Source of the DNA: an uncultured Acidobacterium sp. | Lineage (GTDB): Bacteria; Acidobacteriota; Vicinamibacteria; Vicinamibacterales; UBA2999 | Assembly: GCA_964350785.1 (NCBI GenBank) | Contig: CAYGMD010000003.1 | Coordinates: 1-61,624 of the forward strand | DNA length: 61,624 nucleotides | Reading direction: 5' to 3' | Part shown: in pieces, positions 6,004 through 34,831 of the stretch | How positions within the stretch are numbered: the stretch's first letter is position 1 | Layout of the letters: each line of letters starts with the position of its first letter | The notes under the pieces: model-generated | What the model was told of the DNA's origin: nothing | The model's input: the letters and a program-made list of their open reading frames with translations, nothing else | The model's database searches: none | Position numbers and translations under genes: made by a program

Positions 6004-6019
6004 TGTGAGTCACCTCACT
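6004..6019. promoter_or_regulatory. CRP/FNR-type box TGTGA-gtcacc-TCACT
   Basis: One mismatch to the CRP consensus; upstream of the GH63 start, which has TAACGT 6 nt before its GTG. Confidence 0.55.
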
Positions 6020-6599
6020 TCAACGGCAGATGAGGTGCGGGGGCGTCGCGCGGATGCGGGGGCATCCCGTCTTCGAGGTCCACGCCGAGCCCGTCGGCCA
6101 CACGGTTGATGTAGTTGAAATAGCTGACGATCTGCACCGCATCCGAGACGGCGCGGTCATCAAAACCCTCAGCTCGAAGCGCCACGACATCGTCCTGGAT
6201 CATGGCTGCCGGCTCGGCGGTCAGCTTGACGGCGAAGGCGAGCAGCGCGCGGTCGGCGGGCCCCAGCGGTGCCTTCGTCCAGTCCGTTTTCACCTGCTCC
6301 ACCAGCTCCGGGTCGTCGACCTCGGCACGGAGGTCGTCGGCATGCGCCTCGGTTCAATAGTGGCAGCCGTTGGTCCGCGAGACGACCACGGCCAGCATCT
6401 CTCGCTGCGCCCTGGTGAGGGGCGACCGCCCGCGCATCAGGGCGGCGTAGAGCGCCGTCGAGTGCTTCATCGCCGGCGGGTTGAGGCTCTTGATTCGAAT
6501 GATCTGCCACACCTTGCCCGCGCGGGCCAGCGCGGCGTCGTACTCGGCTCGCAACAACCCGGTGGCTTCGGCCACCGGCTTCAGATCGATCCAGGCCAT
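6015..6599 (-). CDS. AhpD/CMD-family selenoprotein (CxxU), Sec at UGA 6354-6356
   Basis: ORFs 6354..6599 and 6015..6302 are in frame: NGCHY-TGA-TEAHADD. The UGA sits at the second Cys of the AhpD CxxC; downstream hairpin present. Confidence 0.88.
6317..6336 (-). other. Putative bacterial SECIS hairpin
   Basis: CGACCUC-CGUGCC-GAGGUCG, 7-bp stem; loop starts 24 nt after the UGA. Confidence 0.7.
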
Positions 6600-6788
6600 C
6601 TCGCTTCTCCTTCCTTAGCATGACACCGATGCTGAATCCTCATCGGCTCTTGGTGGGTGTCCTGCTCGCCGCGGAGCCATGTGGCGTGTGGGCCTGGTCG
6701 CGCGGCCCGCTGCGGTGACGATCACCGCCGAGGCTGGGCCGTTTCTTGACCAGGCCGTTGTGTCGCGCTGATATCGCGACGGATACGC

Positions 6789-6804
6789 TGTGAGCGGGCT
6801 CACA
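6789..6804. promoter_or_regulatory. Perfect CRP-type box TGTGA-gcgggc-TCACA
   Basis: In the divergent intergenic region between the AhpD selenoprotein and the TVP38 gene. Confidence 0.7.
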
Positions 6805-6979
6805 GATCCACGCCCCCGGCACACGGTCTCCGCCGCTGGCCAACAAGCGTGTGCCATGCTGGCGCCATGCCTGACGTAACACTGGCGTGCGATACACCGA
6901 TCGCTTCGGCACGAGCTGCCGCGTCCCGCATGGAACCAGCAGCGGAGTTCACCGCCGATGGTCAGGTGACCGGTCGGTG

Positions 6980-7681
6980 ATGGTGACCGGAACACTCAAG
7001 GCCGGGATGATCGCGGCTGGCGTTGCCGCGGCGGCCTTCCTCGTCTGGCAGCTGCCCGTCGCGCCCTGGATTGTTGCCTTGGCCGACCGGCTGCGGGAAA
7101 TGGGCTGGCTTGGCATCGCGCTATTCATCGCGATCTATGTCGTGGCCGAGGTGGCCCTTCTGCCGGGCTCGCTCTTCACGCTGGCGGCCGGATTCGCTTA
7201 CGGCCCCGTAGGTGGCCTGCTCGTGGCGTCGCCGGCCAGCGTCCTGGCCGCCACGGTGGCCTTCCTGCTGGGTCGCACGGTGCTGCGGGACTGGATCCGC
7301 GCACGGATTCATCGCTACCCGAAGGCCCAGGCGCTCGATACAGCGATCGGCACCAACAGCTTCAAGTTGATCCTGCTGCTCCGCCTGTCGCCCGTCATTC
7401 CGTTCAACATCCTGAACTACGCCCTCGGCCTGTCGGACGCCAAGGTCGGGCGCTATGTCGTGGCCTCGTTTGTCGGCATGCTGCCAGGCACCTGGTTGTA
7501 CGTGTATCTCGGATCGCTCGCCACGACGGCCGCCCAGCTCACTGAAGCCGGCCAGACCGGCTCACCGCAGACACTGATCCTGACGGGCGTGGGTCTGGTG
7601 TCCACCGTGCTCGTCGTCGTGCTCGTGACTCGCGCGGCGCAGCGGGCGCTGGACGAACAACTGGCCGCGACCAGACGCTGA
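6980..7681 (+). CDS. TVP38/TMEM64 (VTT/SNARE-assoc, DedA superfamily) membrane protein
   Basis: LPGSLFTLAAGFAYG, LLRLSPVIPFNILNY motifs; start could also be 7007. Confidence 0.9.
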   Translation: MVTGTLKAGMIAAGVAAAAFLVWQLPVAPWIVALADRLREMGWLGIALFIAIYVVAEVALLPGSLFTLAAGFAYGPVGGLLVASPASVLAATVAFLLGRTVLRDWIRARIHRYPKAQALDTAIGTNSFKLILLLRLSPVIPFNILNYALGLSDAKVGRYVVASFVGMLPGTWLYVYLGSLATTAAQLTEAGQTGSPQTLILTGVGLVSTVLVVVLVTRAAQRALDEQLAATRR

Positions 7682-7686
7682 ATGCC

Positions 7687-9210
7687 TTACCGCGTCCATC
7701 GAAAATACCGCTCGAACCACCGCTTCACCGACGGCGTCAGCAATCCTCTCCGGTAGGCGTCGCCGGCCTTCTTCAGCGCCTCGGCCTGCGTCGGGTACGG
7801 ATGGATCGTCGCCGCCAGATCACCCAGCGAGCCACCGTGCGTCACGACATACGAGGCCTCCCCAATCAGGTCTCCCGCATGCGCCGCGACGATGGTGCAA
7901 CCGAGAAGCCGTCCGCCCACGTGATGCAAGCGCACAAACCCCTCCGCCTCTTCGTCGAGCACCGCGCGATCGACCTCGGCCAGTTCAATCGTGATCGTCT
8001 TGACGTCATGGCCCTTCTGGCGGGCCTCGGCTTCATACATCCCGACGTGCGCGATTTCCGGATCGGTATACGTACACCACGGCACGACCAGCGCGCTCGC
8101 CCGCTTGCGCCCGTAGAACAGCGCATTCTGAATGACGATGCGCGCCATGGCGTCGGCGGCGTGAGTGAACTTGTACTTGGAACACACATCGCCGGCGGCG
8201 TAGATGCGCCGGTTCGAGGTCTGCATGCGGTCGTTCACCACGACGCCGGCCTTGGTGACGGCCACGCCGGCCGCGTCGAGGCCGAGTCCTTCGATGTTCG
8301 GCGCGCGGCCCGCCGCCACGAGTATCTGGTCACCACCCGCCGCTCCCGACCCGGCGCCGTCGCGGCGCTCGTACCGGATCCGCACACCGGCCGCATCGCT
8401 CGTGGCCTCGACCAGCTGGACACCGAGCTCCAGCCGCACGCCGTCCTCGAGGAGTTGGCGCTGCACGATCGCCGCCGCATCGGCGTCCTCGTTGGGAAGC
8501 ACGTGCGGTGGGCGACCGAGCAGCGTGACCTCGCTGCCGAATCGCGCGAAGGCCTGCGCCAGCTCGCAGCCAATGGGTCCCGCGCCGACCACGATGAGCC
8601 GCGGCGGCAGTTCGGTGAGCCAGAACACGGTCTCGTTAGTGAGGAACGGAATGCCGTCGAGGCCGGGTACCGGCGGGGCGATCGGGCGGCCGCCGGTGGC
8701 GACGACCGCACGGTTGAACTTCAACGTGCGGCCGGCCACTTCGAGGGTGCGCGCGCTCGTGAACGCGCCGCTGCCCAGGAAGACGTCCACCCCGGCGCGC
8801 TGCAAGCGCTGCACCGAGTCGTTGACGCTGATACCGGCGCGGCGCTCACGCATTCGGCGCATGATGGCGGGGAAGTCGGCCTCGACCGGCCCAATGCGGA
8901 CGCCGATCCTGGAAGCCCGGCGCGCCTCGGCGATGGCGCGCGCCGACCGGATGAGCGCTTTCGACGGCACACAACCGACGTTGAGGCAGTCACCGCCAAG
9001 CAAGCCCCGCTCGACAAGCGCCACGCACGCGCCGAGGCCGGCGGCGCCGACGGCACTGACCAGGCCAGCAGTTCCGCCGCCGACGACGACGAGGTCGTAG
9101 ACATCTCGCGGCTCAGGATTCTCCCAATCCGATGGATGAACCGCCTGGAGCAGCGCCTGGTTGGCCGCGTCGAGCGGCCGCACCAGTGGATGGGGCGTGG
9201 TCGTCGTCAT
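7687..9210 (-). CDS. Mercuric-reductase-like pyridine nucleotide-disulfide oxidoreductase
   Basis: GGGTAG, GGDCLNVGCVPSK, GAGPIGCE, IHPYPT; no HMA domain and no C-terminal Cys-Cys. Confidence 0.88.
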   Translation of the reverse strand: MTTTTPHPLVRPLDAANQALLQAVHPSDWENPEPRDVYDLVVVGGGTAGLVSAVGAAGLGACVALVERGLLGGDCLNVGCVPSKALIRSARAIAEARRASRIGVRIGPVEADFPAIMRRMRERRAGISVNDSVQRLQRAGVDVFLGSGAFTSARTLEVAGRTLKFNRAVVATGGRPIAPPVPGLDGIPFLTNETVFWLTELPPRLIVVGAGPIGCELAQAFARFGSEVTLLGRPPHVLPNEDADAAAIVQRQLLEDGVRLELGVQLVEATSDAAGVRIRYERRDGAGSGAAGGDQILVAAGRAPNIEGLGLDAAGVAVTKAGVVVNDRMQTSNRRIYAAGDVCSKYKFTHAADAMARIVIQNALFYGRKRASALVVPWCTYTDPEIAHVGMYEAEARQKGHDVKTITIELAEVDRAVLDEEAEGFVRLHHVGGRLLGCTIVAAHAGDLIGEASYVVTHGGSLGDLAATIHPYPTQAEALKKAGDAYRRGLLTPSVKRWFERYFRWTR

Positions 9211-9284
9211 GCGTTCCTCAGACCATGTACGCGGTGGTGTCTTGAGGCTTCGCGGTGAAGTGCAGCCCCTGTGCCCGGACGACG

Positions 9285-9457
9285 GGCACCTTCTTCGGAT
9301 CACACCCGCGCAGCGCGCACGTGCCGCCGAACGGCTGCTTGCCGATCATCGCGACGGTCCACCCCGCGCCGCGGCACCGCGACGCGACGCTGCCGGCCGC
9401 GGATCCGGAACCAATCACGATCAGGTCGACGGCGCGAGGCGTCATCACTTGAGGCAT
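9285..9457 (-). pseudogene. N-terminal remnant of a glutathione-reductase-like flavoprotein
   Basis: VDLIVIGSGSAAG...FGGTCALRGCDPKK then loss of homology. Confidence 0.7.
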
Positions 9458-9520
9458 GGAAAGAGCATAGCCCGCAGCGGCCCTCGCGCCGCGACGCGCG
9501 TGCGGGTAACCGTCGCGAAC

Positions 9521-9536
9521 AGTGAGGCGCGTCACA
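9521..9536. promoter_or_regulatory. CRP-type box AGTGA-ggcgcg-TCACA (class II position)
   Basis: Centre 9528.5 is 41.5 nt before ATG 9570; -10-like TATCGT at 9558-9563. Confidence 0.7.
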
Positions 9537-9569
9537 GCAGGGATGGAGTGGCGCCCCTATCGTTGGGCG

Positions 9570-10547
9570 ATGGCCCACGTCGTTGAGTTCTTCTACAGCG
9601 AACACTGTATCGGCTGTCCGGAGGCGCGGCAGGTCGTCAGACAACTGGCGGCGGCGAGGCCGGATATCGCGATCGCCGAGTTCGATATCGCGACGCACAT
9701 CGATGAAGCCGGCCGGCATGGCTTGATTGCCACGCCGGCAGTGGTCATCGATGGCGGCCCGGCGCTCTATGGGATTCCTCGGATTTCGGATCTGGCCGCC
9801 CGGTTGGACGGACCGTCGGCTCGGGCTCGCGCGAGTGGTGAACGGCCGCTTATACTGTCGGGGATGGCGGCCCACACCAAGCTTTGGTACCTGCAGCATT
9901 TCCGTTTGCTGGAGGCCCTCACCGACGTCCAGAAGCGCGCCGTCGAGAAGATGACGCGCATGCTGGAAGTCAAGCGCGGCCAGCGCATTTACCTCCCGGG
10001 CGATCCGAGTGACCAGATCTTCCTGCTCAAGACCGGGGTGGTGAAGATTTCGACAGGCGGCGCCGAACAAGATACCATCCTGGCGTTGCTCTATCCGGGC
10101 GACATCTTTGGTGAGCTCGCCATGCTCGACGAGTCGCCGCGCGATCACATCGCCGAGGTCGTGGAAGACACCGTCCTCTGCGCGCTCAATCGAGACATGC
10201 TGCTGCAGATGATCCAGCAGTCGCCTGCGCTCGGCTACCAGATCACCAAGCTCATGGGACTGCGGTTGCGCCGCCTGCGAACGCGGGTCGAGGAACTGCT
10301 GTTCAAGAGCGCGCATGCCCGCATCGCCCACACCCTGCTTGACCTCGCCGCCGACTACGGCGTCAAAGACGATGATGGGGTGCTGATTCCGATTCGCTTG
10401 AACCAGGGCGACCTGGGCAACCTGGTCGGCCTGGCGCGTGAGACGGTGAACATCGTTCTGCAGGACCTGAAGCAGCGAGGCCTCGTCGAGACCAGCCGCC
10501 AGAACATCCGCCTCAAGAGTCCGGAGCTGCTGCGCGCGGTCGTGTAG
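9570..10547 (+). CDS. Thioredoxin-like (CxxC) domain fused in frame to a CRP/FNR regulator
   Basis: FYSEHCIGC...ATPAVVIDG, then from Met 9864 a cNMP-binding domain (FGELAMLDESPR) and HTH (LVGLARETVN). No stop between the two parts. Confidence 0.8.
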   Translation: MAHVVEFFYSEHCIGCPEARQVVRQLAAARPDIAIAEFDIATHIDEAGRHGLIATPAVVIDGGPALYGIPRISDLAARLDGPSARARASGERPLILSGMAAHTKLWYLQHFRLLEALTDVQKRAVEKMTRMLEVKRGQRIYLPGDPSDQIFLLKTGVVKISTGGAEQDTILALLYPGDIFGELAMLDESPRDHIAEVVEDTVLCALNRDMLLQMIQQSPALGYQITKLMGLRLRRLRTRVEELLFKSAHARIAHTLLDLAADYGVKDDDGVLIPIRLNQGDLGNLVGLARETVNIVLQDLKQRGLVETSRQNIRLKSPELLRAVV

Positions 10548-10554
10548 CGCCATC

Positions 10555-10620
10555 GTGAAACGCATCCTCGCGTTCGACGTCAACGACACGCCGCTCGACG
10601 TCCGGGCCCTCGAGACCTCG
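10555..10620 (+). pseudogene. N-terminal remnant of haloacid dehalogenase type II
   Basis: GTG-KRILAFDVNDTPLDVRALE resembles the HAD-II motif I region; only about 20 codons. Confidence 0.45.
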
Positions 10621-10654
10621 GTGGAAAGACGGCAGGGCGCCAACAGGCGATGAT

Positions 10655-11236
10655 GTGAAGGACCTCACATTCTGTTGCCGCCACGCCGACCTGCTGGCGA
10701 TTCAACAAGCCGCCAAGGGTGCCGCGACGCTGACCGGTAATCTGCTGGGCGTCGCGCGCCGGTACAGCGCCGGTGCAACCTACGCCAGCGTGACCGACGT
10801 GCTCAGCGCACCGTTGGACAACCTCGCGCGCGAGTTCGCCAGGCACCACATCACCGTCGAAACCGACTTCAAACCGGCGCCGGCGCCGAACGTCGACCTC
10901 AACTTGCTCTCCCAGGTGTGCCTGAATCTCTATCTCAACGCGCGGGACGCCATGATTCCGAAGGGCGGCGGCACGCTTCGCGTGTCGCTGCGTGGCACGG
11001 CTGACGGCATCGAGTTCACGGTGACCGACACCGGCACGGGCATTCCGGAAGCGTTTCGCTCGCGTATCTTCCAGCCCCTGCAATCCACCAAGGGCGATCG
11101 CGGCACCGGGCTCGGGCTCTCGGTCTCGAAGTCGGTCATTGAATCGATGGGGGGACGCATTCGATACGAGTCGGTCGAGGGCCTGGGCACATCATTCTTT
11201 GTCACGCTGCCGACGGACCCGCCGGGGCGGGCGTAA
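10655..11236 (+). pseudogene. Histidine kinase C-terminal (HATPase_c) fragment
   Basis: N box LNLYLNARDAM, G1 VTDTGTGI, G2 GTGLGLS; no H-box or sensor domain. Confidence 0.7.
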
Positions 11237-11306
11237 GAGCGATGCCACCGGCCAGGCGCGACAGCGTGATCCGATAGGCCTGGAGGCGTTCCACCCACGG
11301 CCCGCA

Positions 11307-11350
11307 GACGAGCCGCCGAGCGGGTCGATGCACAGGATGTACTTGGCCCC
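11307..11350 (-). pseudogene. Tiny remnant of class I fructose-1,6-bisphosphatase
   Basis: KYILCIDPLGGSS resembles the FBPase DPLDGSS motif; lies just after zwf. Confidence 0.4.
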
Positions 11351-11414
11351 TGGCCCGCACGCGATCTGCCGCGGCGCGCCGGGTGCCCGTCCGTCATCGG
11401 CTCCTCCCGGCCGG

Positions 11415-15087: not shown

Positions 15088-15125
15088 CACGCCGCCCGAT
15101 GAATCGCCGAGAATGTCCCTTGATT

Positions 15126-15773
15126 ATGTCCACGTACTCCGACCCGGGCGGCGGCAGGGCGTCCTCGGACGACCTGGCAACCGTCCAGCAGTTGTTGGCG
15201 GGGGACGAAGCTACGTTCACAGCCGTGGTGGAGCGCCTCCACCCCTCCCTCATCAGGTTCGCCCTCCTCTTTGTGGCGAGTCGGGAAGTCGCCGAGGAAG
15301 TCGTGCAGGACACCTGGGTCGCGGTGCTGAACGGCTTGTCCTCGTTCCAGGGCCGCTCGGCGCTCAAGAGCTGGATCTTCAGCATCGCCGCGAACCGGGC
15401 GAAGACCCGCGCCATCCGCGAGAGGCGAACCATCACGTTCTCGGAGCTGTCGGCACCCGGGGACGATGAACCCGCGGTCGATCCGGATCGGTTCTCGAGC
15501 GGCGGCGCGTGGTCGGCGCCACCGGGCCGATGGGATCGCGACACGCCGGAGAAACTCCTGCTCCGTCAGGAGGCGCTCGCCGTGGTGGCCGCCGCCATCG
15601 CGGAATTGCCACCCAGCCAGCAGGCGGTCGTCACCCTCCGCGATGTCGAGGGGCTCGACGCGGCGGAAGTCTGTAACGTTCTCGAGATTTCGGATACCAA
15701 TCAGCGGGTTCTGCTGCACCGGGGCCGATCGAAAGTACGATCGGCACTCGAGCGGTATACGCTGGAAGGGTAG
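15126..15773 (+). CDS. ECF sigma factor (ECF-1)
   Basis: Region 2 EEVVQDTW...FQGRSALKSWIFSIAAN; region 4 NQRVLLHRGR. Confidence 0.9.
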   Translation: MSTYSDPGGGRASSDDLATVQQLLAGDEATFTAVVERLHPSLIRFALLFVASREVAEEVVQDTWVAVLNGLSSFQGRSALKSWIFSIAANRAKTRAIRERRTITFSELSAPGDDEPAVDPDRFSSGGAWSAPPGRWDRDTPEKLLLRQEALAVVAAAIAELPPSQQAVVTLRDVEGLDAAEVCNVLEISDTNQRVLLHRGRSKVRSALERYTLEG

Positions 15774-15775
15774 AC

Positions 15776-16006
15776 ATGCTCACGTGTCAGGAAGTAACCG
15801 AGGTCGTCACGGACTATCTGGAGGGGCGCCAGTCGCTGATGCAGCGGCTGCGCTTTCAGATGCACCTGGGCATGTGCCGGCACTGCCGCGCGTACCTGAA
15901 GCAGATGAAGACGACCGTTGACACCATCGGTCGCCTCCCCAACGAGTCGATCCCTCCCGAAATGAGCAAGGAAGTGCTCGATCGCTTCCGCGCGTGGAAG
16001 CGGTAG
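15776..16006 (+). CDS. Soluble zf-HC2 anti-sigma factor
   Basis: HLGMCRHC (HxxxCxxC), 76 aa, no TM segment. Confidence 0.88.
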   Translation: MLTCQEVTEVVTDYLEGRQSLMQRLRFQMHLGMCRHCRAYLKQMKTTVDTIGRLPNESIPPEMSKEVLDRFRAWKR

Positions 16007-16017: not shown

Positions 16018-17100
16018 CTACTGGCCGGGCGCGCGTTCGCGGTCCAGCGCCTTCAGGCTTACCGTCCACGTCAGCGGCACCGTCTGCGGGTTGAAACACA
16101 CCTTGTCGTCGCACGCCTGGTAGTTCAGGATCCCCTCGATGGTGACGCTGGTGGCGCCCTTGAGCGCGGCCTGGCCGGCGGCCGACGAGTCGATCATCAC
16201 GTCCTGCACAATACGGAACGGCTTCTGGTACACCTGCACGTGTTCATCCAGCGGCTTGAAGTGGTAGTCCTCTGATTTGGGGTACTGAGCGGCCCGGACG
16301 ACGAGGCCCGGCTTGGCTTTGACCGTCAAGACGATCGGCTTGTAACCGGTAACGCCGGGCGCATAGACATGCACTCGCGGCGCGGGAGTGATGTCCAGCA
16401 CGATGGAGAAGTGGGTGCCGGGCGCCGCCGCCTGGTCGGTCGTGTACGAGGTGATCTCGACATTCGGTGATGACACCTTGGTCGCCGGCACATTCACCTT
16501 GCTGCCCATCCGAACGAGCACGCTCGACATCGTATTGCGCTCCTGGTAGCCGTCTTCGAAGAAGCGGGACGTCACCACGCCCCGGCGGTCAACGATGAAC
16601 ATGCCGGGAAACGGATATCCGAACAGGTTGTTCGACGGATCCACCGCCGTATTGAGGAGCCCGTACCGCTTGATGACGGCCGAGCCGGCATCTGACAACA
16701 GGGGAAACGTGATCTGCCGGCGTGCCGCGAACTCGGCGAGTACGGGAACCGGGTCGTAGGTGATCACGGCCAACTCGTAGCCGTTCTGCCTCACGTCGGC
16801 CAGCCGTCCCTGCATTTCGACGAGTTGCGTCTTGCAATAGGGACACCAGGACGCGGACCTCGAGAAGGTCAGCATGAGGCCCTTGGGGCCCATCAAGGAT
16901 TCCAGGGTGCGGGCACGCCCCGTCTGGTCCCGGAGGGAGAACGCCGGCAGCTTGTCACCGACCTGCGGGCCGAGCTTTCGCACGTCCGGCGCGGACGCAG
17001 CGGCGGCCGATTGCTCGGCGACCAGCGGTGACGAGACGGCGCCGGAGGCGATCACGCCACCGATCAAACACACACAGAAAGCGCACAGGCGAGCGAGCAT
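16018..17100 (-). CDS. Exported redoxin (AhpC/TSA-like, CxxC) + DsbD N-terminal-like domain; Cys paralog
   Basis: Signal peptide, SWCPYCKTQL, C-terminal YQACDDKVCF. Confidence 0.85.
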   Translation of the reverse strand: MLARLCAFCVCLIGGVIASGAVSSPLVAEQSAAAASAPDVRKLGPQVGDKLPAFSLRDQTGRARTLESLMGPKGLMLTFSRSASWCPYCKTQLVEMQGRLADVRQNGYELAVITYDPVPVLAEFAARRQITFPLLSDAGSAVIKRYGLLNTAVDPSNNLFGYPFPGMFIVDRRGVVTSRFFEDGYQERNTMSSVLVRMGSKVNVPATKVSSPNVEITSYTTDQAAAPGTHFSIVLDITPAPRVHVYAPGVTGYKPIVLTVKAKPGLVVRAAQYPKSEDYHFKPLDEHVQVYQKPFRIVQDVMIDSSAAGQAALKGATSVTIEGILNYQACDDKVCFNPQTVPLTWTVSLKALDRERAPGQ

Positions 17101-17148: not shown

Positions 17149-17748
17149 CTAGCGGGGTGGTGGCGCGGCAATGCGTTCGATGGCAACGCCCGGCGCCAGG
17201 CCGGCCAGCACGCGTACCTCCAACTCTGTGGTTTTCGCGTCGATCGCCCCCATGTGCCGCTTCACGATCCGGCCGTCACGATCGACCAGCAGCGTCATCG
17301 GCAGCGCGTGTACACCACCGAACAACCGGTCCAGTTCCGGCGTCATCATCACAATCGGAAAATCCATCCTCATGGCCGCGACGAAATTCTTGACCGGCGT
17401 GAGATCGCCCTCGTCCGCCGAGATACCGATGACCCGCAGGTGCTCGCGATACTTGACCTGGAGCCGGAGCAGGTCCGGGATCTCCACCCGGCAGGGACCG
17501 CACCAGGTCGCCCAGAAGTTCACGAGCGTGACCTGGCCGCGCCACTGGCCGGACCGCACCGTCTGACCATCCAGCGAGCGTGCGGTGAAGGCCGGCAGCA
17601 GGCCGGGGCTGGCGAGGAACTGCACCGAAGTGGCGCCGGCGGCCGGCGGTGCCGGCGAGCCTGATACCGCCGATTGGGCCCCCAGGTTGACCCCAACAAT
17701 TAGCAGGCCGGCCGCAATCGACGCGCGCAGAATGTGTTTTTTTTCCAT
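17149..17748 (-). CDS. TlpA-family thiol-disulfide oxidoreductase
   Basis: VNFWATWCGPCRVEIP, HALPMT. Confidence 0.9.
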   Translation of the reverse strand: MEKKHILRASIAAGLLIVGVNLGAQSAVSGSPAPPAAGATSVQFLASPGLLPAFTARSLDGQTVRSGQWRGQVTLVNFWATWCGPCRVEIPDLLRLQVKYREHLRVIGISADEGDLTPVKNFVAAMRMDFPIVMMTPELDRLFGGVHALPMTLLVDRDGRIVKRHMGAIDAKTTELEVRVLAGLAPGVAIERIAAPPPR

Positions 17749-17769: not shown

Positions 17770-18417
17770 TCAGCCGATGATGGTGAACGTCTGCACGGCA
17801 AGGCTGCCCGCCTCGCGAAACAGCCGGGCACGCACCCGCACGGCCTTGCCCAGCAGCGCCGTGTCGTGAATCAGGTCGGCCGATGCCGGCTGCTCGACGA
17901 TGTTCCAGATGCGACCGTCACTTGTGGCAATCGCGCCGTGGTGGCCCGTCCGCTGGCACATCGGCGGTTCGCCGTGCCGTTTCTCGAGCTCACAGTCGCG
18001 GCACACCAGTTGCCCTTCGAGCACGATCTCCGTCGGCCCGGACCACCTGGCCACGGCGGAATCCATCGCGCCAACCACGGCGTCGGGAATCTGCCCACTA
18101 CTGGCCGCCGCCAAGCCGGCGCCGACAACCAGCACGAGCGACGCGGCGATCGCCACGCGACGCCCGGCGGCGGGCAGGTCGCGCGGCACCCACCACGGCC
18201 GCAGTGACCGCCGGACCCGCTCGCCAAGATTCGCGGGAGGGCTGTGCGCGAACACCGCCTGCCGTACCGCGCCGCGCAATCGCTCGAGATGGGCCACCAC
18301 CCGCGCGCAGGCCGCGCACTCGGAGAGGTGCGCGTCGGCGGCGGCGACGGCCTCCGCTGACAACTCGCCGTCGACGTAGCAATCGAGCAACTCGCGAAAC
18401 TGTTTGCAATCCATCAT
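17770..18417 (-). CDS. Membrane-anchored zf-HC2 anti-sigma with Cys/His-rich extracytoplasmic domain
   Basis: HLSECAAC, one TM segment, then VCRDCELEKRHGEPPMCQRTGHH. Confidence 0.8.
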   Translation of the reverse strand: MMDCKQFRELLDCYVDGELSAEAVAAADAHLSECAACARVVAHLERLRGAVRQAVFAHSPPANLGERVRRSLRPWWVPRDLPAAGRRVAIAASLVLVVGAGLAAASSGQIPDAVVGAMDSAVARWSGPTEIVLEGQLVCRDCELEKRHGEPPMCQRTGHHGAIATSDGRIWNIVEQPASADLIHDTALLGKAVRVRARLFREAGSLAVQTFTIIG

Positions 18418-18959
18418 GATTTCCGTTCCTTGGCGATCGGCGCGCGCGCCATCGGCGGCGCCGAGACTCGCCCGCGCAGCAGGCGCGCCAGCATGCGCCG
18501 GCCGCGGTTGATTCGAGACATCACAGTGCCGATCGGGCAGCCCATCGCGGCCGCAATCTCCTGGTAGGTCAGCTCTTCAACATCGGCCAGCAATACGGCG
18601 AAGCGGAACGCCTCGGGTAACTGCCCGAGCGCCCACGTCATGTCCGCGGACACTTCCTCGCGGAGGAAGTCACCCTCCCAGTCGTAGTACGGCTCCGTCC
18701 TGACTTCCTCCACGTCGCCGACCGGCAGTTCCAGCCGGGTCTTTCGCCACTGCGTGACCCAAGCGTTGTGAAGAATGCGACACAGCCAGGCGCGGCAGTT
18801 GGTCGCTGGATCGAACTGGTCAAAATGCGCCCACGCCCGCAGGAACGTCTCCTGGGTGAGGTCGTCGGCCAGTCGCGCACCGCCGAGTTGCCAGGCCAGC
18901 CGATAGACGGCCGTCAGGTGTGGCATTGCGACGGCCTCGAAGTGCTGTCTGGTGCTCAT
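18414..18959 (-). CDS. ECF sigma factor (ECF-2)
   Basis: DDLTQETFLRAW, GTVMSRINRGR; overlaps the anti-sigma start by 4 nt. Confidence 0.9.
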   Translation of the reverse strand: MSTRQHFEAVAMPHLTAVYRLAWQLGGARLADDLTQETFLRAWAHFDQFDPATNCRAWLCRILHNAWVTQWRKTRLELPVGDVEEVRTEPYYDWEGDFLREEVSADMTWALGQLPEAFRFAVLLADVEELTYQEIAAAMGCPIGTVMSRINRGRRMLARLLRGRVSAPPMARAPIAKERKS

Positions 18960-19193: not shown

Positions 19194-20216
19194 ATGCGCG
19201 CGATGTTGATGTGGGTACTCTTCGCCGGCACGATGTCGGCTCAACTATCGTGGACCGAGCAGGCCACGATCGATGGCGATCCGGTGATGCGTGGCCTGCC
19301 CAAAGACGCCATTCCCGCGATTGACAAGCCCGTCTTCGTGCCCGTCGCCCAGGCGAAGTACATGCAGGACGAGGAACCGGTAATCGGCGTCGCGTTCGGC
19401 GCCGTCGCCCGCGCCTACCCCACCTGGCTGCTCAACGGGCACGAGATCGTCAACGACACCATCGCGGGGCGCGCGATTACGGTGACCTGGTGACCGCTCT
19501 GTTACACGGGCATCGTGTATGCCCGCACGGTCGCTAACCGCGAACTGACCTTCGGCGTGTCCGGCATGCTCTGGCGCGACAACCTGGTCATGTACGACCG
19601 CCAGACCGACTCCTGGTGGGCACAGGCCACCGGCACCGCCATTGCCGGGCCCCTCAAGGGACAAGTGCTGACCATTCTGGCCTCCGATATGATGACCTGG
19701 AAGCAGTGGCGCAGTCTGCACCCGGGCACGGTGGTCTTGTCCAAGGAGACCGCGGCCGGTGCCGACGGCACGAGCGACCGCTATGACGGCTATCACGCGC
19801 GCGGCGGAATCGGCGTCACAGGCCGCACGACGTCCGCCGGTGCTCTCGATCCGAAGGCGCGGGTGCTCGGTTTCCGCATCGAGGGCCGGCCCTACGCCGC
19901 AGCGCTCGATGTACTGAAGGCCAATCCGGTACTGCCGGTGGCGAGCGTGCCCGGTGGCCTGATCGTCGTCGCCACGCCCGACCGGTCAGGCGCCAAGGTG
20001 TTCGCCGCGGGCGGAAGGGCCTTCGAGGCGGCGGGCACAGAGGGCGACCGGACGACGATCCGAGACCGTGAGACCGGATCGCGGTGGGACGGTTATCAAG
20101 GCCTGGCTGTGTCCGGGCCGCTCAAGGGGCAGCAGCTCGCCGCCACGCCCGCGTTCGTGTCGTACTGGTTCTCGTGGCGGTCGTTCTTTCCGGCCACCGA
20201 GATCATACGGCGGTAG
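19194..20216 (+). CDS. DUF3179-family selenoprotein (UxxC), Sec at UGA 19491-19493
   Basis: ITVTW-TGA-PLCYTGIVY joins ORFs 19194..19493 and 19515..20216; PKDAIPAID, SGMLWRDNLVMYDRQTDSWW. Confidence 0.88.
19507..19525 (+). other. Putative SECIS hairpin
   Basis: CGGGCAU-CGUGU-AUGCCCG; loop 20 nt after the UGA. Confidence 0.75.
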
Positions 20217-20228: not shown

Positions 20229-20771
20229 TCAAGAGCCGAAGCGCTCCTCGAGTTCGACGCCCAGTCCGTCCGCCAGGCGGTTGACGAAGGCGAAGTAACC
20301 GACGATGGTACAAACGTCGTGGATGGCCCGATCATCGAAGCCGGCGGCGCGCAGCAGGTCGACATCGGCGACCGTCATCGCGGCCGGGGTGCGCGTCAGC
20401 TTCATCGCATACACCAACATTGCCCGGTCCGGTGCGCTCGTCGCGGCGGACTCCGGGTGTTCCACCAGCGCACGCAGCATGTCGTCCTGGGCCGACGGCG
20501 CAATGCCCTCGCGGGTGAGCAACAGACGGAGACCCGCTCCGTGATGCTGAGTTCAATAGTGACAACCGTTGGCTGCCGACACGGCGGTCGCCATCATCTC
20601 CCGCTGAATCCGCGTGAGCGGCCCCGACCGCCGCATCAACTCGACGTAGAGATCGAAGTGCAGGCGCATCACCCGGCTGTGCACGCCGTGGATGCGGAGA
20701 ATGTTGTCGGTGTCATCGACGCGATCCTCGACGGGAATCTCGCTGTCTGGCAGATAGTGAATATGGGCCAT
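20229..20771 (-). CDS. Second AhpD/CMD-family selenoprotein (CxxU), Sec at UGA 20553-20555
   Basis: NGCHY-TGA-TQHHGAGL joins ORFs 20553..20771 and 20229..20522; FVNRLADGLGV C-terminus like the first copy. Confidence 0.88.
20520..20549 (-). other. Putative SECIS hairpin
   Basis: CAGCA/UGUUG lower stem, ACGGAG-CGGGU-CUCCGU upper stem; loop 16 nt after the UGA. Confidence 0.7.
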
Positions 20772-21479
20772 TTACGCGGAGAGTCTATCAGAGCCGCCCT
20801 CGGCACGCTCCTGGTGGTCGTACTGTGCGCGCCGCAGCCGGCCGCCCAGGCCCCGCCGATGGCGAACGGTGTTGACCCGAGACTCACCGAGGCGATCGCG
20901 TGGTACACCGGCACCGCCGGACACGTGGACGACGACCGTGCGCATGAGCTGCTGCTCCAGGCCGTCGCGGACGCGGACCCCGTGTCGGTGATGTGGCTCG
21001 CGCGCTGCCACTCGCGCGGGCGCATGCGGTTCGAGCGAGATCCGGCGAAGGCCACCGCGCTGGCACGCCGGGTTATTGGCGACATCGGGCGACTCGCCGA
21101 AACGGACTTGCCCGAGGCGGTGTTCCTGACGGGAACGGCGTACGACGAGGGCCTCGGCGTGGCTGTCAACACTGCCCTGGCCGCGGCGTGGTTTCATCGC
21201 GCCGCCGACCTGGGGCACCTGCTGGCGAAACACAATCTCGGCAACGCGTACGCCGACGGTCGAGGCGTGCCGCAGAGTGATGCCATGGCGGTCTACTGGT
21301 GGCGCGAGCCCGCCGACGCGGGCGATGCCATTCCGCAGTTCCGCATGGCGAAGATGTACGAGGAAGGACGCGGCGTGCCCCGCAATCCGCTGCTGGCCCT
21401 TCAGTGGTATCGACGTTCAGCCGAGCGCGGCCACGGACCGGCACGCGAGGCGCTGACCCGCCTCGGGGCGGGCAGGTAG
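20763..21479 (+). CDS. Sel1-repeat protein (start uncertain)
   Basis: AAAWFHRAADLGH, AKHNLGNAYADGRGV, QWYRRSAERGH repeats. Confidence 0.8.
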   Translation: MGHLRGESIRAALGTLLVVVLCAPQPAAQAPPMANGVDPRLTEAIAWYTGTAGHVDDDRAHELLLQAVADADPVSVMWLARCHSRGRMRFERDPAKATALARRVIGDIGRLAETDLPEAVFLTGTAYDEGLGVAVNTALAAAWFHRAADLGHLLAKHNLGNAYADGRGVPQSDAMAVYWWREPADAGDAIPQFRMAKMYEEGRGVPRNPLLALQWYRRSAERGHGPAREALTRLGAGR

Positions 21480-25873: not shown

Positions 25874-25938
25874 TCAACTCCAGTTGGCCGGCGGTCAGGA
25901 TGAACCTGGCCGCGCCGGGCCATCAGGCTGGAGCCTCC

Positions 25939-26205
25939 ATGAATCCTCGTTTCGTTATCGCCTCGGCGTTCGCCGCGGCCATCGCCGTCCCCGCCCTGCT
26001 CTCGGCCCAGAAGCCCGCCGAGATGCCCACCTTCAAGGCGGAAAAGTGCTACGGCATCGCCAAGGCCGGCGCCAACGACTGCGCGTCGACCGGCAACAAC
26101 TCGTGCGGCGGCACCTCCAAGCGCGCCAGCGACAGCAAGGCCTGGATGTTCGTGGCCGAGGGCACCTGCGACCGCATCGTCGGCGGCAGCAAGACCGCGA
26201 AGTAA
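25939..26205 (+). CDS. bufA1: DUF2282 bufferin-type precursor, copy 1
   Basis: Signal peptide + EKCYGIAKAGANDCA...SC...C, four Cys, 88 aa. Confidence 0.85.
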   Translation: MNPRFVIASAFAAAIAVPALLSAQKPAEMPTFKAEKCYGIAKAGANDCASTGNNSCGGTSKRASDSKAWMFVAEGTCDRIVGGSKTAK

Positions 26206-26217
26206 GCACGGGACCAA

Positions 26218-26577
26218 GTGGCCATCACCATGTCGTCGACTCATCGCGCTCCGGTCCGGGCCGGCGTCGGCCCGAGATTGCCGCACATCGAAGAGGTGGT
26301 GGCCACTCGGCTGCCCTATGACCGGGAGACGCTCGACACGGTGACGCGACACCTGCGCGAGGTCCAGGACGGCCTGGGTCGGCCATACCTGCTGGAGAAC
26401 CCATCCAGCTACGTCGGCTTCGCGGGCTCGACCATGACGGAAACGGAATTCCTGAACGAGCTGGTCGACCGCACCGGCTGCCAAGTGGCGATGCCCGTGT
26501 GGGGCAGCGACGCCCGTCGTTCGCTCATGGTTTCTCCGTCACAGATCCAGGGTGAGGTCAGTCGAATGGGCGCGTGA
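26218..26577 (+). pseudogene. DUF692 (MNIO) maturase remnant
   Basis: Versus the intact copy at 39930 it has an 86-codon in-frame deletion (ATR/LPYDRET) and loses homology after DRTGC. Confidence 0.9.
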
Positions 26578-28424: not shown

Positions 28425-28445
28425 GGTCACAACCTCGCGGGGTGG

Positions 28446-29374: not shown

Positions 29375-29404
29375 GGGCACAGTCCTCTCGTTGACCGGGC
29401 GTTC

Positions 29405-30208
29405 CTACTTGAGCGACGACAGGACCTTCACGGCGCTCGCCGTGCTCCAGATGTCGCTGGCAATGAGCCGGAAGTTGACGTAGGCGGCCTCGTAGCCGTC
29501 GAAGCCCGGAAGTTTCGCGGCGGCCGTCGCGTCGGTGACGACGACGACCTCGAAGCCCTGCTCGAGCAGCTCGCGCATGTGCGACTCGGTGCAGAGATTG
29601 GCCGACATGCCGGCCAGCACGACCTGGCCGATTCCGGCCTTTCGAAGCTGCAGCACCAGATCGTTGGTCTCGGGTCCGAACACCTTGTGCGGGCTGGAGA
29701 CGACGGTCGTGCCGTCGTTCAGGTACGGCTTGTAGCGATCCAACCAGTCGGCGCCTGATCCCTCGAACGCTTCCTGCGTGAGCGCGCCCTTGCGGTCGAA
29801 CATGCCGATGTTGTGCATCAGCACCTCGAGCGCGCCCGCGAACTTCCAGCGATGGTCGTGCGCGAAGTAATAGTGCGGGCTCACGAACACCGGCACATCC
29901 GCGGTCTTCGCGGCCTTGAGCAGCCGCTCGATGTTCTCGACCGTGCCGTTCTCCTTCACGCTCTCGCCGACGACGCCCCAGGCGACGCCCTTCGGGCTGA
30001 GGAAATCGTTCTGCGGATCGGTGACGAGCAAGCCGACGCGGCCCTTGATGGGGGTCATGCCGGGACGCGGCACCGGCGCGTCGGCTCGCGGACCACTGAA
30101 GTGCGGCAGGGTGGGTGTCGCGCGCTGAGCGACGAGGTGGGGCGCCACGGCCAGGGCCGAAGCGCCGACAATCAGGGCGATAACTGACAAGCGGATGATA
30201 CGGGTCAC
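29405..30208 (-). CDS. Isochorismatase-family cysteine hydrolase with signal peptide
   Basis: TDPQNDF, SPHK, GMSANLC catalytic triad. Confidence 0.88.
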   Translation of the reverse strand: MTRIIRLSVIALIVGASALAVAPHLVAQRATPTLPHFSGPRADAPVPRPGMTPIKGRVGLLVTDPQNDFLSPKGVAWGVVGESVKENGTVENIERLLKAAKTADVPVFVSPHYYFAHDHRWKFAGALEVLMHNIGMFDRKGALTQEAFEGSGADWLDRYKPYLNDGTTVVSSPHKVFGPETNDLVLQLRKAGIGQVVLAGMSANLCTESHMRELLEQGFEVVVVTDATAAAKLPGFDGYEAAYVNFRLIASDIWSTASAVKVLSSLK

Positions 30209-30284
30209 GGTGGTCTCCTTCGACCGATGAGCAAACACGGTTCCTTAGGACGAATCGTCCTGACTCGTCCCCGCCGACCGATAT

Positions 30285-30301
30285 ATCAAGTTGCCTGCCA
30301 A
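30285..30301 (-). promoter_or_regulatory. sigma54-type promoter TTGGCAGGCAACTTGAT
   Basis: GG-N10-GA variant of -24/-12; faces the hydrolase operon, next to a bEBP gene. Confidence 0.55.
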
Positions 30302-30340
30302 CTTGTGACCTGACGTGTAAGTTACTGTTTCAATTGATGT

Positions 30341-30356
30341 TGTGACAGATTTCAGA
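30341..30356. promoter_or_regulatory. CRP-type box TGTGA-cagatt-TCAGA
   Basis: One mismatch; divergent AT-rich intergenic region. Confidence 0.5.
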
Positions 30357-30462
30357 CATTATCCGGTAACGACCAAATATCGTCGCCTACCATTTTTCGT
30401 TGCACATAATAGTTGTTTTTCGTAGTCTACCAGCGGTGAACACGCTTCAGTTACCTGGTGTC

Positions 30463-32016
<1,554 letters not shown>

Positions 32017-32403
32017 TTGACGGCGGACAGTTCGGCACACGCAGCCGCGCAGCTTCTCGAGAGGACCGCCGCGCGGTCCGGCCACCAGCGGTGCCCACCG
32101 CTACCTCAAGGCGACGATTCGGTCCGCACATCCTGACCACCCGCGGTTGCGGCGCTCGTCGGCATCCGCGTCTTTGCGCGGGAGCTGAACAGAAGCACGT
32201 TGCCTTCGAAGGGGGTCGATGCGGCTTTCGCAGGCGTGAGCTGGTTCGGCGGTCTTCTCGGTGGCGTGGGAACAGGTCTGTGGATGCTCCGGTGCCGCCG
32301 CATTCCGATCGTGCGAGCGGCCGCCCAAGCGACCTGCCGTGGGCCGTCGCTTTTCCCGGCGCCGGACTGCGGCAGCCCTGACGACTGCCAGCCCTTCGTG
32401 CCG

Positions 32404-33198
32404 TCAGTGATGCGCCGGCCGTTGCGCTGATCGCTTCCATAGGGCGATCCCTCCGAGCAGGCCGGCAGCGTTGTCGACCACGCGCACGCGGCGGCCCAGG
32501 TGGAAATCGATGCGCGCGGCGTTGCCCCCACCCAGATAGAGCCGGTCGAAGTTGAAAACGGTCTCGAGAATGCCAATGACGCGACGCACGCGCCGGCGCC
32601 ACTTGCGAGTGCCCAGCCGCTTACGCGCCGCATCGCCGAGGTACTGATCGTAGGTCTTGCGGCCGCGGACCGGGTGCTGTGACAGTTCCAGATGCGGCAA
32701 CAGCGCGCCGTCCTGAAACTGCGCGCTGCCCACGCCGGTTCCCAGCGTGATGACCAGCTCGAAACCTTGACCCGCGATCACCGCAAGCCCCTGGACCTCG
32801 GCGTCGTTGACCACCCGAACCGGCCGCTTGAGAATCTCCTCCAGCGCGCGTGCGAGATCGAATCCGCGCCAGGTCCGACTGGCGAAGTTCGGTGCGGTGC
32901 GTACGACACCATCTCGAACCACGCCTGGAAAGCCTGCCGAGATCCGATCATACTCGGCCAGGGGCGCGACCAAGTCGCGGATTGCGCGTACCACGGTCGA
33001 TGGCGGCCGGCCGGCGGGTGTTGGCGTACGCACGCGGTCGCCTATGGGCTTGCCGCGAGCATCGAGGACCACGGCCTTCAGTCCCGTTCCGCCGATGTCG
33101 ATCGTCAGCGTCAGAGGGCCGGCGCGTCTACGACGCTGTTGCCTCGCACGGGCGGCTGCAGGGGGCTTGGTTGAAATGACAGGCTCCTTCGGCGTCAT
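32404..33198 (-). CDS. ROK-family kinase (polyphosphate glucokinase-like)
   Basis: DIGGTGLK, VNDAEVQG, LGTGVGS, LGGGNA. Confidence 0.85.
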   Translation of the reverse strand: MTPKEPVISTKPPAAARARQQRRRRAGPLTLTIDIGGTGLKAVVLDARGKPIGDRVRTPTPAGRPPSTVVRAIRDLVAPLAEYDRISAGFPGVVRDGVVRTAPNFASRTWRGFDLARALEEILKRPVRVVNDAEVQGLAVIAGQGFELVITLGTGVGSAQFQDGALLPHLELSQHPVRGRKTYDQYLGDAARKRLGTRKWRRRVRRVIGILETVFNFDRLYLGGGNAARIDFHLGRRVRVVDNAAGLLGGIALWKRSAQRPAHH

Positions 33199-33244
33199 AT
33201 GGCTTAGGTTAGTCGCCGTCGTGAGTTGTCTGTTACCGCCGACC

Positions 33245-33260
33245 GGTGATCCACATCACA
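33245..33260. promoter_or_regulatory. CRP-type box GGTGA-tccaca-TCACA
   Basis: Upstream of the ROK gene, which has TAACCT 7 nt before its ATG. Confidence 0.55.
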
Positions 33261-33344
33261 CATCCCGCACATCGCTCGTCTCGTTCCACCAAACCGGGCA
33301 CACACGTTGGACATCACGCGGGCACGTTCAACTCTGGCGGAATC

Positions 33345-33520
33345 TGATGCACCCGCATATTGGTCGGTCGATGTTAATGGTTAAACCCGGCCTGCGGATG
33401 GTGAGGGTCAAGCAGGCATTTGGAGTCTTGATTCTCGGCACAGCGCTCTACTACGGCTATGTGGCGTATGAGTTGTTCGCCAATCGCTGGGTGGACGCCT
33501 CCTCGGCGGCGACGCGCGAA
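33345..33520 (+). pseudogene. DsbD/CcdA transmembrane-domain remnant
   Basis: KPGLRMVRVKQAFGVLILGTALYYGY resembles the DsbD PxPGxWMxxxKxxxG segment. Confidence 0.55.
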
Positions 33521-33631
33521 CCGGGCGAGTTGTCCAGCTCAATCGCCGTACCATCACATCTCTATGATGCAAAGGGGCTACAGAACAGAGCACCCCTGGC
33601 CATTTGGTGGCGGGACCCCTTGTGCGAAGGC

Positions 33632-33647
33632 TGTGAGCGGAGTCACA
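33632..33647. promoter_or_regulatory. Perfect CRP-type box TGTGA-gcggag-TCACA (class II position)
   Basis: Centre 33639.5; TATGAT at 33670-33675; GTG 33680 / ATG 33683. Confidence 0.75.
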
Positions 33648-33682
33648 CCTTGGGCGCGATCAGTGCGCGTATGATGCGGGTG

Positions 33683-34831
33683 ATGAAAGGTGCGGCGAGT
33701 TTCTGGTCAATGCTGGCGCTGCTGTGCGCCCCGCTGTTCTCGCAGGTGCCGGCGCCGCGGGCGCCCGTGGACGTGGCACGGCTCGGACCGCAGGTCGGCG
33801 AACACGTTCCTGGATTCAGCCTGACGGATCAGTCGGGCAAGACGTGGACTCTGTCCTCCGTCATGGGCCCGAAGGGCGCCATGATCGTCTTCTACCGATC
33901 GGTGGATTGGTGACCGTATTGCAAAACGCAGCTCGTGGAGCTGCAAGGACGGGTGGACGAACTCACGGCGCAAGGCCTCGGCCTAACCGCCATCAGCTAT
34001 GACTCGCCGGAGCTGCTGGCGGATTTCAGCCGCCGGCACCGGATCACGTTTCCGCTGCTCTCGGACACCGGCTCGGCGACGATCACGACCTACGGCATTC
34101 TCAACACCGTCGCCGACGAAGCGCTCGAGACCCGACCCGGCAACGCCACCCTGCGGGAGGATGTGAAGAAGTACGTGGCGACCAACGGATCGCGCAGCGT
34201 CGCCGAGCTGACGAAGGGAACGCCGTTCCCCGGTACGTTTGTCGTCGATCGCGAGGGTCGCGTCACGGCGCGATTCTTCGAGGAGTACTATCGCGAGCGG
34301 AACACGGCATCGAGCATCCTGCTCAGGCTCGGAAACGGTGCGCCGCCGGTCGCCGCCACGCGGATCGCGGCTGCACATCTCGACATCACGGCGTATGCGA
34401 GCGACTCGACGGTCTCGCCCGGCACACGCTTCGCGCTTGCCGTGAGCGTCGTGCCCCGGCCGCGCATCCACGTCTACGCCCCGGGCGCCGATGCCAACGG
34501 GTACCGTGTCGTGTCCTTGAGCGTCGCGCCGCAGCCGTTCGTGCGGACGCTGCCGATTCGTTATCCCCCTTCGGAGATCTACGATTTCAAGCCGCTCGAC
34601 GAGCGCGTGCCGGTGTACCGGAAGGCGTTCACCTTGCTACGGGAAGTGGTCGTCGAGGTCACCTCCGAAGCGGAGCGGGCCCTGCGCGATCGGAAGACCC
34701 TGACGATGACCGGCGTCCTCGAGTATCAGGCCTGCGACGACAAGGTGTGTTTCACTCCGGCAACGGTGCCGCTGACGTGGACGGTCGCGCTCACACCAAA
34801 CATTACCGAGCGCCCGAATCGTCCGCAGTGA
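33683..34831 (+). CDS. Exported redoxin + DsbD-N-like selenoprotein (UxxC), Sec at UGA 33911-33913
   Basis: FYRSVDW-TGA-PYCKTQL aligns with FSRSASW-C-PYCKTQL of 16018..17100. Confidence 0.9.
33928..33944 (+). other. Putative SECIS hairpin
   Basis: GCAGCUC-GUG-GAGCUGC; loop about 20 nt after the UGA. Confidence 0.75.

Follow-up and report, generated by a model that had tools for sequence, protein, structure and literature searches.

The stretch of DNA analysed here (hereafter, the window) comprises 61,624 nucleotides of contig CAYGMD010000003.1 (C3) in assembly GCA_964350785.1, the genome of an uncultured Vicinamibacterales-like Acidobacteriota bacterium. It carries four genes in which an in-frame TGA, at positions 6354 (-), 19491 (+), 20553 (-) and 33911 (+), lies inside a redox motif. 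These four TGAs are very probably selenocysteine (Sec, U) codons in genes for thiol-type oxidoreductases. When TGA is translated as U, the motifs read, in coordinate order, CHY-U, W-U-PLC, CHY-U and W-U-PYC, exactly as an initial annotation made from the sequence alone had given them, and four unbroken reading frames emerge, which encode two AhpD-like proteins, one DUF3179 protein and one redoxin fusion (Table 1). That annotation had also held that read-through restores full-length domains and that all three families are known to include selenoproteins, and it was right on both counts. Single Pfam or NCBIfam domains continue across the TGA in every one of the four proteins (CMD/AhpD in both small proteins, DUF3179 in the third, AhpC/TSA-Redoxin together with a weak DsbD_N match in the fourth), and each of the three families already has its place in selenoprotein catalogues, to which the four genes add new members that lack annotation. 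When every in-frame TGA flanked on both sides by coding signal was scanned, the window yielded no additional redox-motif candidate. Alignment with homologues, the check that had been proposed for these positions, gave Cys or TGA at exactly the four columns, apart from one distant Gly in the AhpD-like family.

Both small proteins combine a CxxU motif with a score above the cut-off of NCBIfam TIGR01926 ('peroxidase-related enzyme'; 147.6 and 114.8 bits for AhpD-like 1 and 2, cut-off 81.8) and belong on these grounds to the AhpD-like family. They are 48% identical to each other, both lack a signal peptide, and gene 2 is convergent with the DUF3179 gene. In their CxxC the U stands second, a position which we take, from work on the M. 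tuberculosis AhpD, to be that of the attacking residue. Solved relatives are 'peroxidase-related' AhpD-core proteins with Cys at the U column, and the one closest to AhpD-like 1 is PDB 3c1l. Among the homologues this column contains 17 TGA, three Cys and one Gly, the last in a distant match of 27.5% identity (L045). The TGA is kept in orthologues of AhpD-like 1 at 56-85% identity and in orthologues of AhpD-like 2 at 85-87% identity, which come from two sister species (G041 and G043, about 80-86% nucleotide identity). AhpD-like selenoproteins first came to light in metagenomic data from the Sargasso Sea (PMC1088965) and are catalogued in PMC13188914. The window pair resembles this family (TIGR01926, COG2128) in the CxxU motif, in the placement of Sec at the second CxxC position and in the bacterial Sec insertion sequence (bSECIS) after the UGA. 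It shows no essential difference from the family and represents two diverged, unannotated paralogues within one Acidobacteriota genome. On the strand opposite AhpD-like 2 (20229-20771, -), a spurious extension of a Sel1-repeat open reading frame (ORF; 20319-21479, +) overlaps the gene and won over it when genes were called by a simple codon score. Public gene callers place the Sel1 start at 20859.

The DUF3179 protein matches PF11376 from end to end (273.5 bits, cut-off 27; profile positions 1-292 of 292) and has U at the conserved Cys of the family, which establishes its membership. The two Cys positions of the motif, C100 and C103, are invariant in 17 of 17 full-length homologues from the database. 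TGA stands at the same column in five related genomes, and all others have Cys within the sequence Y-C-T-L-C; this common subfamily of the relatives and the W-[U/C]-P-L-C subfamily share about 32-35% identity. Both sister species retain the TGA of the DUF3179 gene as well as that of AhpD-like 2, and their versions of these proteins are 84-90% identical over the full length, including the portion past the TGA. DUF3179 domain-containing selenoproteins (PF11376, UxxC/T) are catalogued in PMC9312934 and PMC13188914. The window protein is like them in being full-length, in having UxxC at the invariant CxxC and in carrying a signal peptide, but differs in belonging to the W-[U/C]-P-L-C subfamily. 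A homologue from an archaeon (P0121) is fused to a thioredoxin/AhpC-TSA domain. A sequence search of the PDB with the DUF3179 protein returned no match. Its AlphaFold model is all-beta and confident (pLDDT of 90), and a Foldseek search with this model gave no match at E <= 0.001. The best matches, Rieske-type ferredoxins over ~95 columns (E 0.085, TM-target 0.58), are non-significant and serve as a lead only.

The fourth protein consists of a redoxin domain and a C-terminal DsbD-alpha-like domain. Its start is most probably ATG 33671, 33674 or 33683, followed by the signal peptide MMRVMKGAASFWSMLALLCAPLFSQ; the long 5' extension of the frame is non-coding. The PF00578 (AhpC/TSA) match of 98.6 bits (cut-off 26) and the UxxC of the WUPYC motif assign it to the Prx-like thiol:disulfide oxidoreductases. 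The redoxin domain aligns best with extracytoplasmic thiol-disulfide oxidoreductases of the ResA/TlpA type, and there the U takes the place of the nucleophilic Cys that opens the ResA CxxC. The possibility of a true peroxiredoxin was rejected, as the peroxidatic TxxU/PxxxTxxC motif is absent and the best solved relatives are of the ResA type. The match to DsbD_N (PF11412) stays below the cut-off of 25 in the Sec protein (22.2 bits) and exceeds it in a Cys paralogue encoded in the same window (32.6 bits). All 80 of the 80 homologues of the fusion retain the C-terminal pair YQAC-x4-C; the corresponding spacing in E. coli DsbD is C-x5-C. Column mapping with tblastn found 69 TGA, seven TGC and three TGT codons at the U column of 79 loci, which come from Acidobacteriota metagenome-assembled genomes (MAGs) mostly labelled Vicinamibacterales. 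Of the copies of the fusion in the genome itself, three have Sec and one has Cys.

Prx-like UxxC selenoproteins (PF00578) have been described in Geobacter and Syntrophus (PMC1794560, PMC13188914), and both the Prx-like and the AhpD-like selenoprotein families date from 2005-2006 (PMC1088965, PMC1794560). The window redoxin shares with the former the AhpC/TSA-Redoxin fold, the W-U-P-x-C motif and export, but differs by its conserved DsbD-alpha-like domain, of which the catalogue entries consulted make no mention. In 4 of 80 loci (L079 and three more, from other Acidobacteria MAGs) the Sec form of the fusion gene directly adjoins an apparent selA, as judged from the N-terminal sequence alone, and in 6 of 80 it adjoins a fusion of DedA/VTT and disulfide oxidoreductase, the halves of which are separate adjacent genes in the window (6977-9210).

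A bSECIS-type hairpin follows each of the four UGAs. The constraints published in PMC13188914 are a loop of 3-9 nt, a G in the first two loop positions and a distance of 16-37 nt from the UGA; all four hairpins conform to them, with the apical loop starting 16-24 nt downstream and a G within the first two loop positions. In the redoxin fusion, all seven stem pairs are formed in 56 of 70 Sec forms and at least six in 69 of 70, against all seven in only 3 of 10 Cys forms. Third-codon positions in the stem are near-invariant (G 69/70, G 70/70, C 60/70, G 70/70, G 69/70), while those in the loop and flanks vary freely, and inside the stem 60 of the 70 Sec forms have CTC in place of the usual Leu codon, CTG. 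In the DUF3179 hairpin, three orthologues (L016-L018) have exchanged a G-C pair for U-A, a compensatory change, and the Cys forms lack the hairpin. The stem of AhpD-like 1 does not vary among five orthologues, the most distant of which has 56% protein identity. At the level of sequence, these comparisons are strong evidence for SECIS function.

The initial annotation had noted that selABCD are missing from the window and had proposed a search of the genome for them. They are indeed missing from the window, and the search found all of the components on other contigs of the same genome: selA on C304 (525.6 bits), selB on C252 (324.7 bits), selD on C80 (354.9 bits) and a tRNA-Sec on C7, recognised by both ARAGORN and Rfam RF01852 (61.9 bits versus 47). 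The selD gene has an in-frame TGA of its own, SCAG-U-ASK, at the classical active-site position. In related genomes selA is present in 36 of 41, and in 29 of the 31 of good quality. The window also contains two ordinary tRNA genes, at 44245-44330 (-) and 59226-59299 (+), neither of which is a tRNA-Sec.

In the mechanism that we propose, Sec would stand in for one Cys of a two-residue redox motif in each protein, as CxxU in the cytoplasmic AhpD-like pair and as UxxC in the exported DUF3179 and redoxin proteins, and the redoxin fusion would add a second centre, the DsbD-alpha-like CxxxxC. Decoding would follow the ordinary bacterial route, with the in-gene bSECIS, its apical loop 16-24 nt after the UGA, recruiting SelB-GTP-Sec-tRNA(Sec), and with selA, selB, selC and selD, encoded elsewhere in the genome, supplying the machinery; UGA acts as terminator at the ends of three of the four genes, where such a hairpin is lacking. 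Sec would probably be the attacking nucleophile and form a selenenylsulfide with the partner Cys. The exported proteins may take part in thiol-disulfide exchange in the envelope and the AhpD-like pair in the reduction of peroxides or disulfides in the cytoplasm. The neighbourhood of the four genes contains two pairs of ECF (extracytoplasmic function) sigma and zf-HC2 factors, a TlpA-like redoxin, the Cys paralogue, a disulfide oxidoreductase, a thioredoxin-Crp regulator, G6PD and 6PGD.

Table 1. Features of the window and selenoprotein candidates on other contigs of the same genome (Sec assignments are predictions).
Feature	Position	Strand	Description
GH63-like hydrolase			3-38 kb map; listed before AhpD-like gene 1
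AhpD-like selenoprotein gene 1	6015..6599	-	194 aa, U82 in NGCHY-U-TEAH, true stop TGA
Sec codon UGA (U82), AhpD-like 1	6354..6356	-	
bSECIS-type hairpin, AhpD-like 1	6317..6336	-	CGACCUC-CGUGCC-GAGGUCG, 7 bp, loop 24 nt after UGA
DedA/VTT protein			3-38 kb map; listed after AhpD-like gene 1
Pyridine-nucleotide disulfide oxidoreductase	7687-9210		full-length
Thioredoxin-cNMP-Crp regulator	9543-10547	+	Thioredoxin_3 N-terminus, cNMP-binding domain, Crp-type helix-turn-helix
G6PD, 6PGD, PagL			3-38 kb map; between Crp-type regulator and first ECF pair
ECF sigma factor and zf-HC2 anti-sigma pair	15120..16006	+	
Cys paralogue of redoxin/DsbD-alpha-like fusion	16018..17067	-	W-C-P-Y-C; PF00578 89.5 bits, PF11412 32.6 bits
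TlpA-like thioredoxin-fold redoxin	17149..17748	-	
Second ECF sigma factor and zf-HC2 anti-sigma pair	17770..18959	-	
DUF3179 selenoprotein gene	19194..20216	+	340 aa, signal peptide, U100 in VTW-U-PLCYTG
Sec codon UGA (U100), DUF3179	19491..19493	+	
bSECIS-type hairpin, DUF3179	19507..19525	+	CGGGCAU-CGUGU-AUGCCCG
AhpD-like selenoprotein gene 2	20229..20771	-	180 aa, U73 in NGCHY-U-TQHH
Sec codon UGA (U73), AhpD-like 2	20553..20555	-	
bSECIS-type hairpin, AhpD-like 2	20520..20549	-	upper stem ACGGAG-CGGGU-CUCCGU and lower stem
Sel1-repeat protein, then ABC transporter			3-38 kb map; after AhpD-like gene 2
DUF2282 gene and DUF692 (MbnB/TglH/ChrH) piece	25900-26577	+	DUF692 piece of 99 aa, profile positions 106-166 of 263
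Ferredoxin reductase, PNPOx, DsrE-like, DUF1348, isochorismatase, sigma-54 activator, ROK fragment			before redoxin fusion
Prx-like/TlpA-like redoxin and DsbD-alpha-like fusion	about 33671..34831	+	U in SVDW-U-PYCK; YQAC-DDKV-C
Sec codon UGA, redoxin fusion	33911..33913	+	
bSECIS-type hairpin, redoxin fusion	33928..33944	+	GCAGCUC-GUG-GAGCUGC
TonB-dependent-type outer-membrane protein			3-38 kb map; listed after redoxin fusion
Exported DUF411/CopG-like protein (L160)	C1:82041-82523	+	TGA at C1:82182
CooC/MinD-like P-loop ATPase (PF01656, L158)	C4:38279-39055	+	TGA in GHGGAG-U-MCG, UxC
Sec redoxin/DsbD-alpha fusion	C78:9012-9947		
Sec redoxin/DsbD-alpha fusion	C192:4501-5457		
SelD	C80:5216-6145		
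Prx candidate	C46:8252		FTGG-U-T
HMA metal-binding protein candidate	C65:4011		GMT-U-TGC
AhpF-N-terminal-type PDO (protein disulfide oxidoreductase) candidate	C60:23756		TIGR02187 above cut-off
ArsM-like methyltransferase candidate	C25:17457		
FdhA candidate	C215:5108		
Third AhpD-like candidate	C53:24124		

The four genes lie on one contig within 28.8 kb, a proximity reached in 0.025-1% of random placements of 15-40 genes in a 5.08-Mb genome, and their clustering above random is real. The claim that such a density is unusual holds to this extent, but the density is not extraordinary: co-location of Prx-like and AhpD-like selenoprotein genes is known, as are operons of three to six selenoprotein genes. 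The 'accessory region' of the initial annotation is not supported. GC content is flat across the window with no compositional shift, no integrase or transposase domains and no mobile-element genes were seen in the 3-38 kb map, and the block of TlpA-like, DUF3179, AhpD-like and ABC transporter genes is syntenic in both sister species. The high local density is due to the position of the genes among thiol-redox and oxidative-stress genes, and the region is best described as a part of the chromosome where thiol-redox genes are loosely grouped, in a lineage rich in selenoproteins.

A selenoprotein operon was considered for the window and rejected, since the four genes are neither contiguous nor co-directional, and the neighbourhood recurs in 9 of 80 redoxin loci and in 0 of 5 Sec-DUF3179 loci. 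According to PMC13188914, selenoprotein genes of the Prx-like and AhpD-like families can cluster in operons, and some operons hold three to six genes for selenoproteins. The multi-selenoprotein operons described there (grdA-grdB, frhA-frhD-hdrA-glpC, SAO, Tso) likewise bring several selenoprotein genes close together; the window genes differ from them in being non-contiguous, in not being co-directional and in having unrelated genes interposed.

The density could also be functional, the four genes forming a single selenium-dependent redox module or regulon under ECF sigma control, the members of which exchange electrons. We regard this as unlikely. In its favour, the neighbourhood is rich in redox genes and contains two ECF/zf-HC2 pairs, the clustering exceeds random placement, and the co-location of Prx-like and AhpD-like genes has precedent (PMC13188914). 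The TlpA-like/DUF3179/AhpD-like block is syntenic in the two sister species. A DUF3179 or AhpD-like gene occurs within 3 kb of the redoxin fusion in 9 of 80 loci, well above chance, and DUF3179 by itself in 7 of 80, far above chance; genes for ECF sigma factors, TlpA-like proteins and DedA-disulfide-reductase fusions recur beside the fusion gene, and the archaeal DUF3179 homologue P0121 joins the two kinds of domain in one chain. Against this, the genes are distributed over both strands at intervals of 12-13 kb with unrelated genes (ABC transporter, G6PD, sigma-54 activator) in between. No DUF3179 or AhpD-like gene is present within 3 kb in the other 71 of 80 redoxin loci, and the DUF3179 genes that do accompany the fusion belong to the distant Cys subfamily. 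None of the five Sec-DUF3179 orthologues from other families has an AhpD-like neighbour, and the synteny of the TlpA-like/DUF3179/AhpD-like block in G041 and G043 may merely reflect close kinship. Clustering of the ORFs that flank the 80 redoxin loci found no strongly conserved neighbour.

Some further observations concern the neighbouring genes. The thioredoxin-cNMP-Crp regulator, which adjoins the disulfide oxidoreductase and is 85% conserved in G041, may be a redox-sensing transcription factor. The region 5' of the disulfide oxidoreductase (~9218-9448, -; 76-79 aa) was considered as a fifth Sec gene and rejected because its frame is different. The product of this ORF is limited to the N-terminus of a pyridine-nucleotide disulfide oxidoreductase, with its FAD-binding part and GGTC-ALRG-C redox motif, and the ORF looks like the gene remnant of a second such enzyme rather than a Sec or frameshift gene. 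The DUF2282-DUF692 genes are apparently a truncated copy of the usual pair. The TlpA-like gene adjoins the DUF3179 gene in G043, G041 and L017.

Two other explanations address the TGAs themselves. In the first, they are real stops, and the genes are pseudogenes or pairs of separately expressed half-proteins. The initial annotation had predicted that standard gene callers would split all four genes, and this is what the public assemblies show (81 + 92, 99 + 233, 83 + 72 and 188 + 298 aa); a GTG start is also available downstream of each TGA. Independently made ENA and Logan assemblies, from the same organism or a nearly identical one, contain fragments broken at the same TGAs, and sequencing error is therefore excluded. 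The organism is represented in assemblies ERZ27247820/30/37 and in runs ERR3094295/6. Real stops are nevertheless highly improbable. The break would fall inside an active-site motif in the middle of a single domain. Dozens of species share the TGA at this column and conserve the protein on either side of it, a pattern that does not fit decay. Cys is the residue that homologues have instead, and a conserved RNA hairpin with synonymous-site constraint follows.

That the UGA is read as another amino acid (Trp, Cys or Gly) through suppression or an altered code deserves equally little credence. Computation cannot distinguish the inserted residue, and near-cognate insertion of Cys or Trp at UGA occurs at a low level in bacteria. 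However, TGA is the commonest stop, closing 26 of the 43 genes called with confidence in the window, and terminates three of the four selenoprotein genes, which rules out a reassigned code. The genome encodes the whole Sec pathway including tRNA-Sec. Homologues align Cys with the U, in no case Trp and only once Gly (L045), the motifs are typical of known selenoproteins, and a relative that lacks selA (G028) provides a natural control in which all four AhpD-like homologues are Cys forms without TGA.

Several points weigh against the Sec codon assignment itself. The assembly (5.08 Mb, 375 contigs, 95% complete, about 3% contamination) is a binned genome, and none of the sel genes shares a contig with the window; the occurrence of selA throughout the lineage mitigates this, since it marks the Sec trait as a property of the lineage and not of contaminating DNA. 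The bSECIS constraints are loose: of the ordinary TGA stops in the genome, which is GC-rich, 24% have a conforming hairpin behind them, and the presence of a hairpin alone is therefore weak evidence, which becomes informative only through comparative conservation. Sec insertion at the four UGAs is a prediction for an uncultured MAG, and the biochemical roles are putative, being drawn from Cys homologues only. The DUF3179 family has no characterised member, and its model and sequence have no significant structural match in Foldseek or PDB searches.

A self-comparison of Sec and Cys forms across the genome, combined with motif, Pfam and NCBIfam checks, raised the number of selenoprotein genes to at least about 15, including the four in the window (Table 1). 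In 2006, three selenoprotein families with four selenoproteins were known in Acidobacteria, and one cultured member has three; measured against these counts, about 15 or more is high for Acidobacteriota. In the exported DUF411/CopG-like protein, the TGA replaces the first Cys of a CxCC motif (YKSPT-U-GCC). This column has TGA in about 17 related genomes and Cys in about 10. All 11 Sec forms examined share a hairpin of 8-9 bp ~11 nt after the UGA, which is absent from the Cys form. The protein reaches the cut-off of no NCBIfam model, no entry for DUF411/PF04214 was found in the 2026 selenoprotein review, and no paper joining DUF411 and selenocysteine was found. DUF411/CopG-like proteins may thus represent an uncatalogued selenoprotein family. 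For the CooC/MinD-like ATPase, likewise with no entry found in the selenoprotein catalogue, the TGA and the hairpin that follows are kept in the single close relative with the gene (G006, 87% identity). Two further candidates from the genome scan, a NUDIX protein (C320) and an aminotransferase (C17), were judged doubtful.

A more far-reaching picture, which we put forward with considerable reserve, is that of a lineage with an unusually large selenoproteome of thiol oxidoreductases, the core of which is the 29-kb region. This region would be a selenium-dependent thiol-stress module of envelope and cytoplasm controlled by ECF-sigma/ZAS pairs, with the redoxin fusion, TlpA-like and DUF3179 proteins forming an extracytoplasmic relay of electrons and the AhpD-like proteins a cytoplasmic arm.

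The identification of the four window TGAs as probable Sec codons leaves the understanding of Sec decoding and of the kinds of selenoproteins unchanged. Its consequences lie in annotation and in comparative material. Four redox genes and at least 11 candidates elsewhere in the genome stand in public assemblies as pairs of fragments, a misannotation that makes functional and pangenome studies of soil Acidobacteriota undercount antioxidant and envelope redox capacity as well as selenium dependence. The redoxin fusion, with Sec in 69 of 79 loci, provides a large natural set of Sec and Cys forms with a constrained SECIS, in which the conversion of Sec to Cys can be followed.

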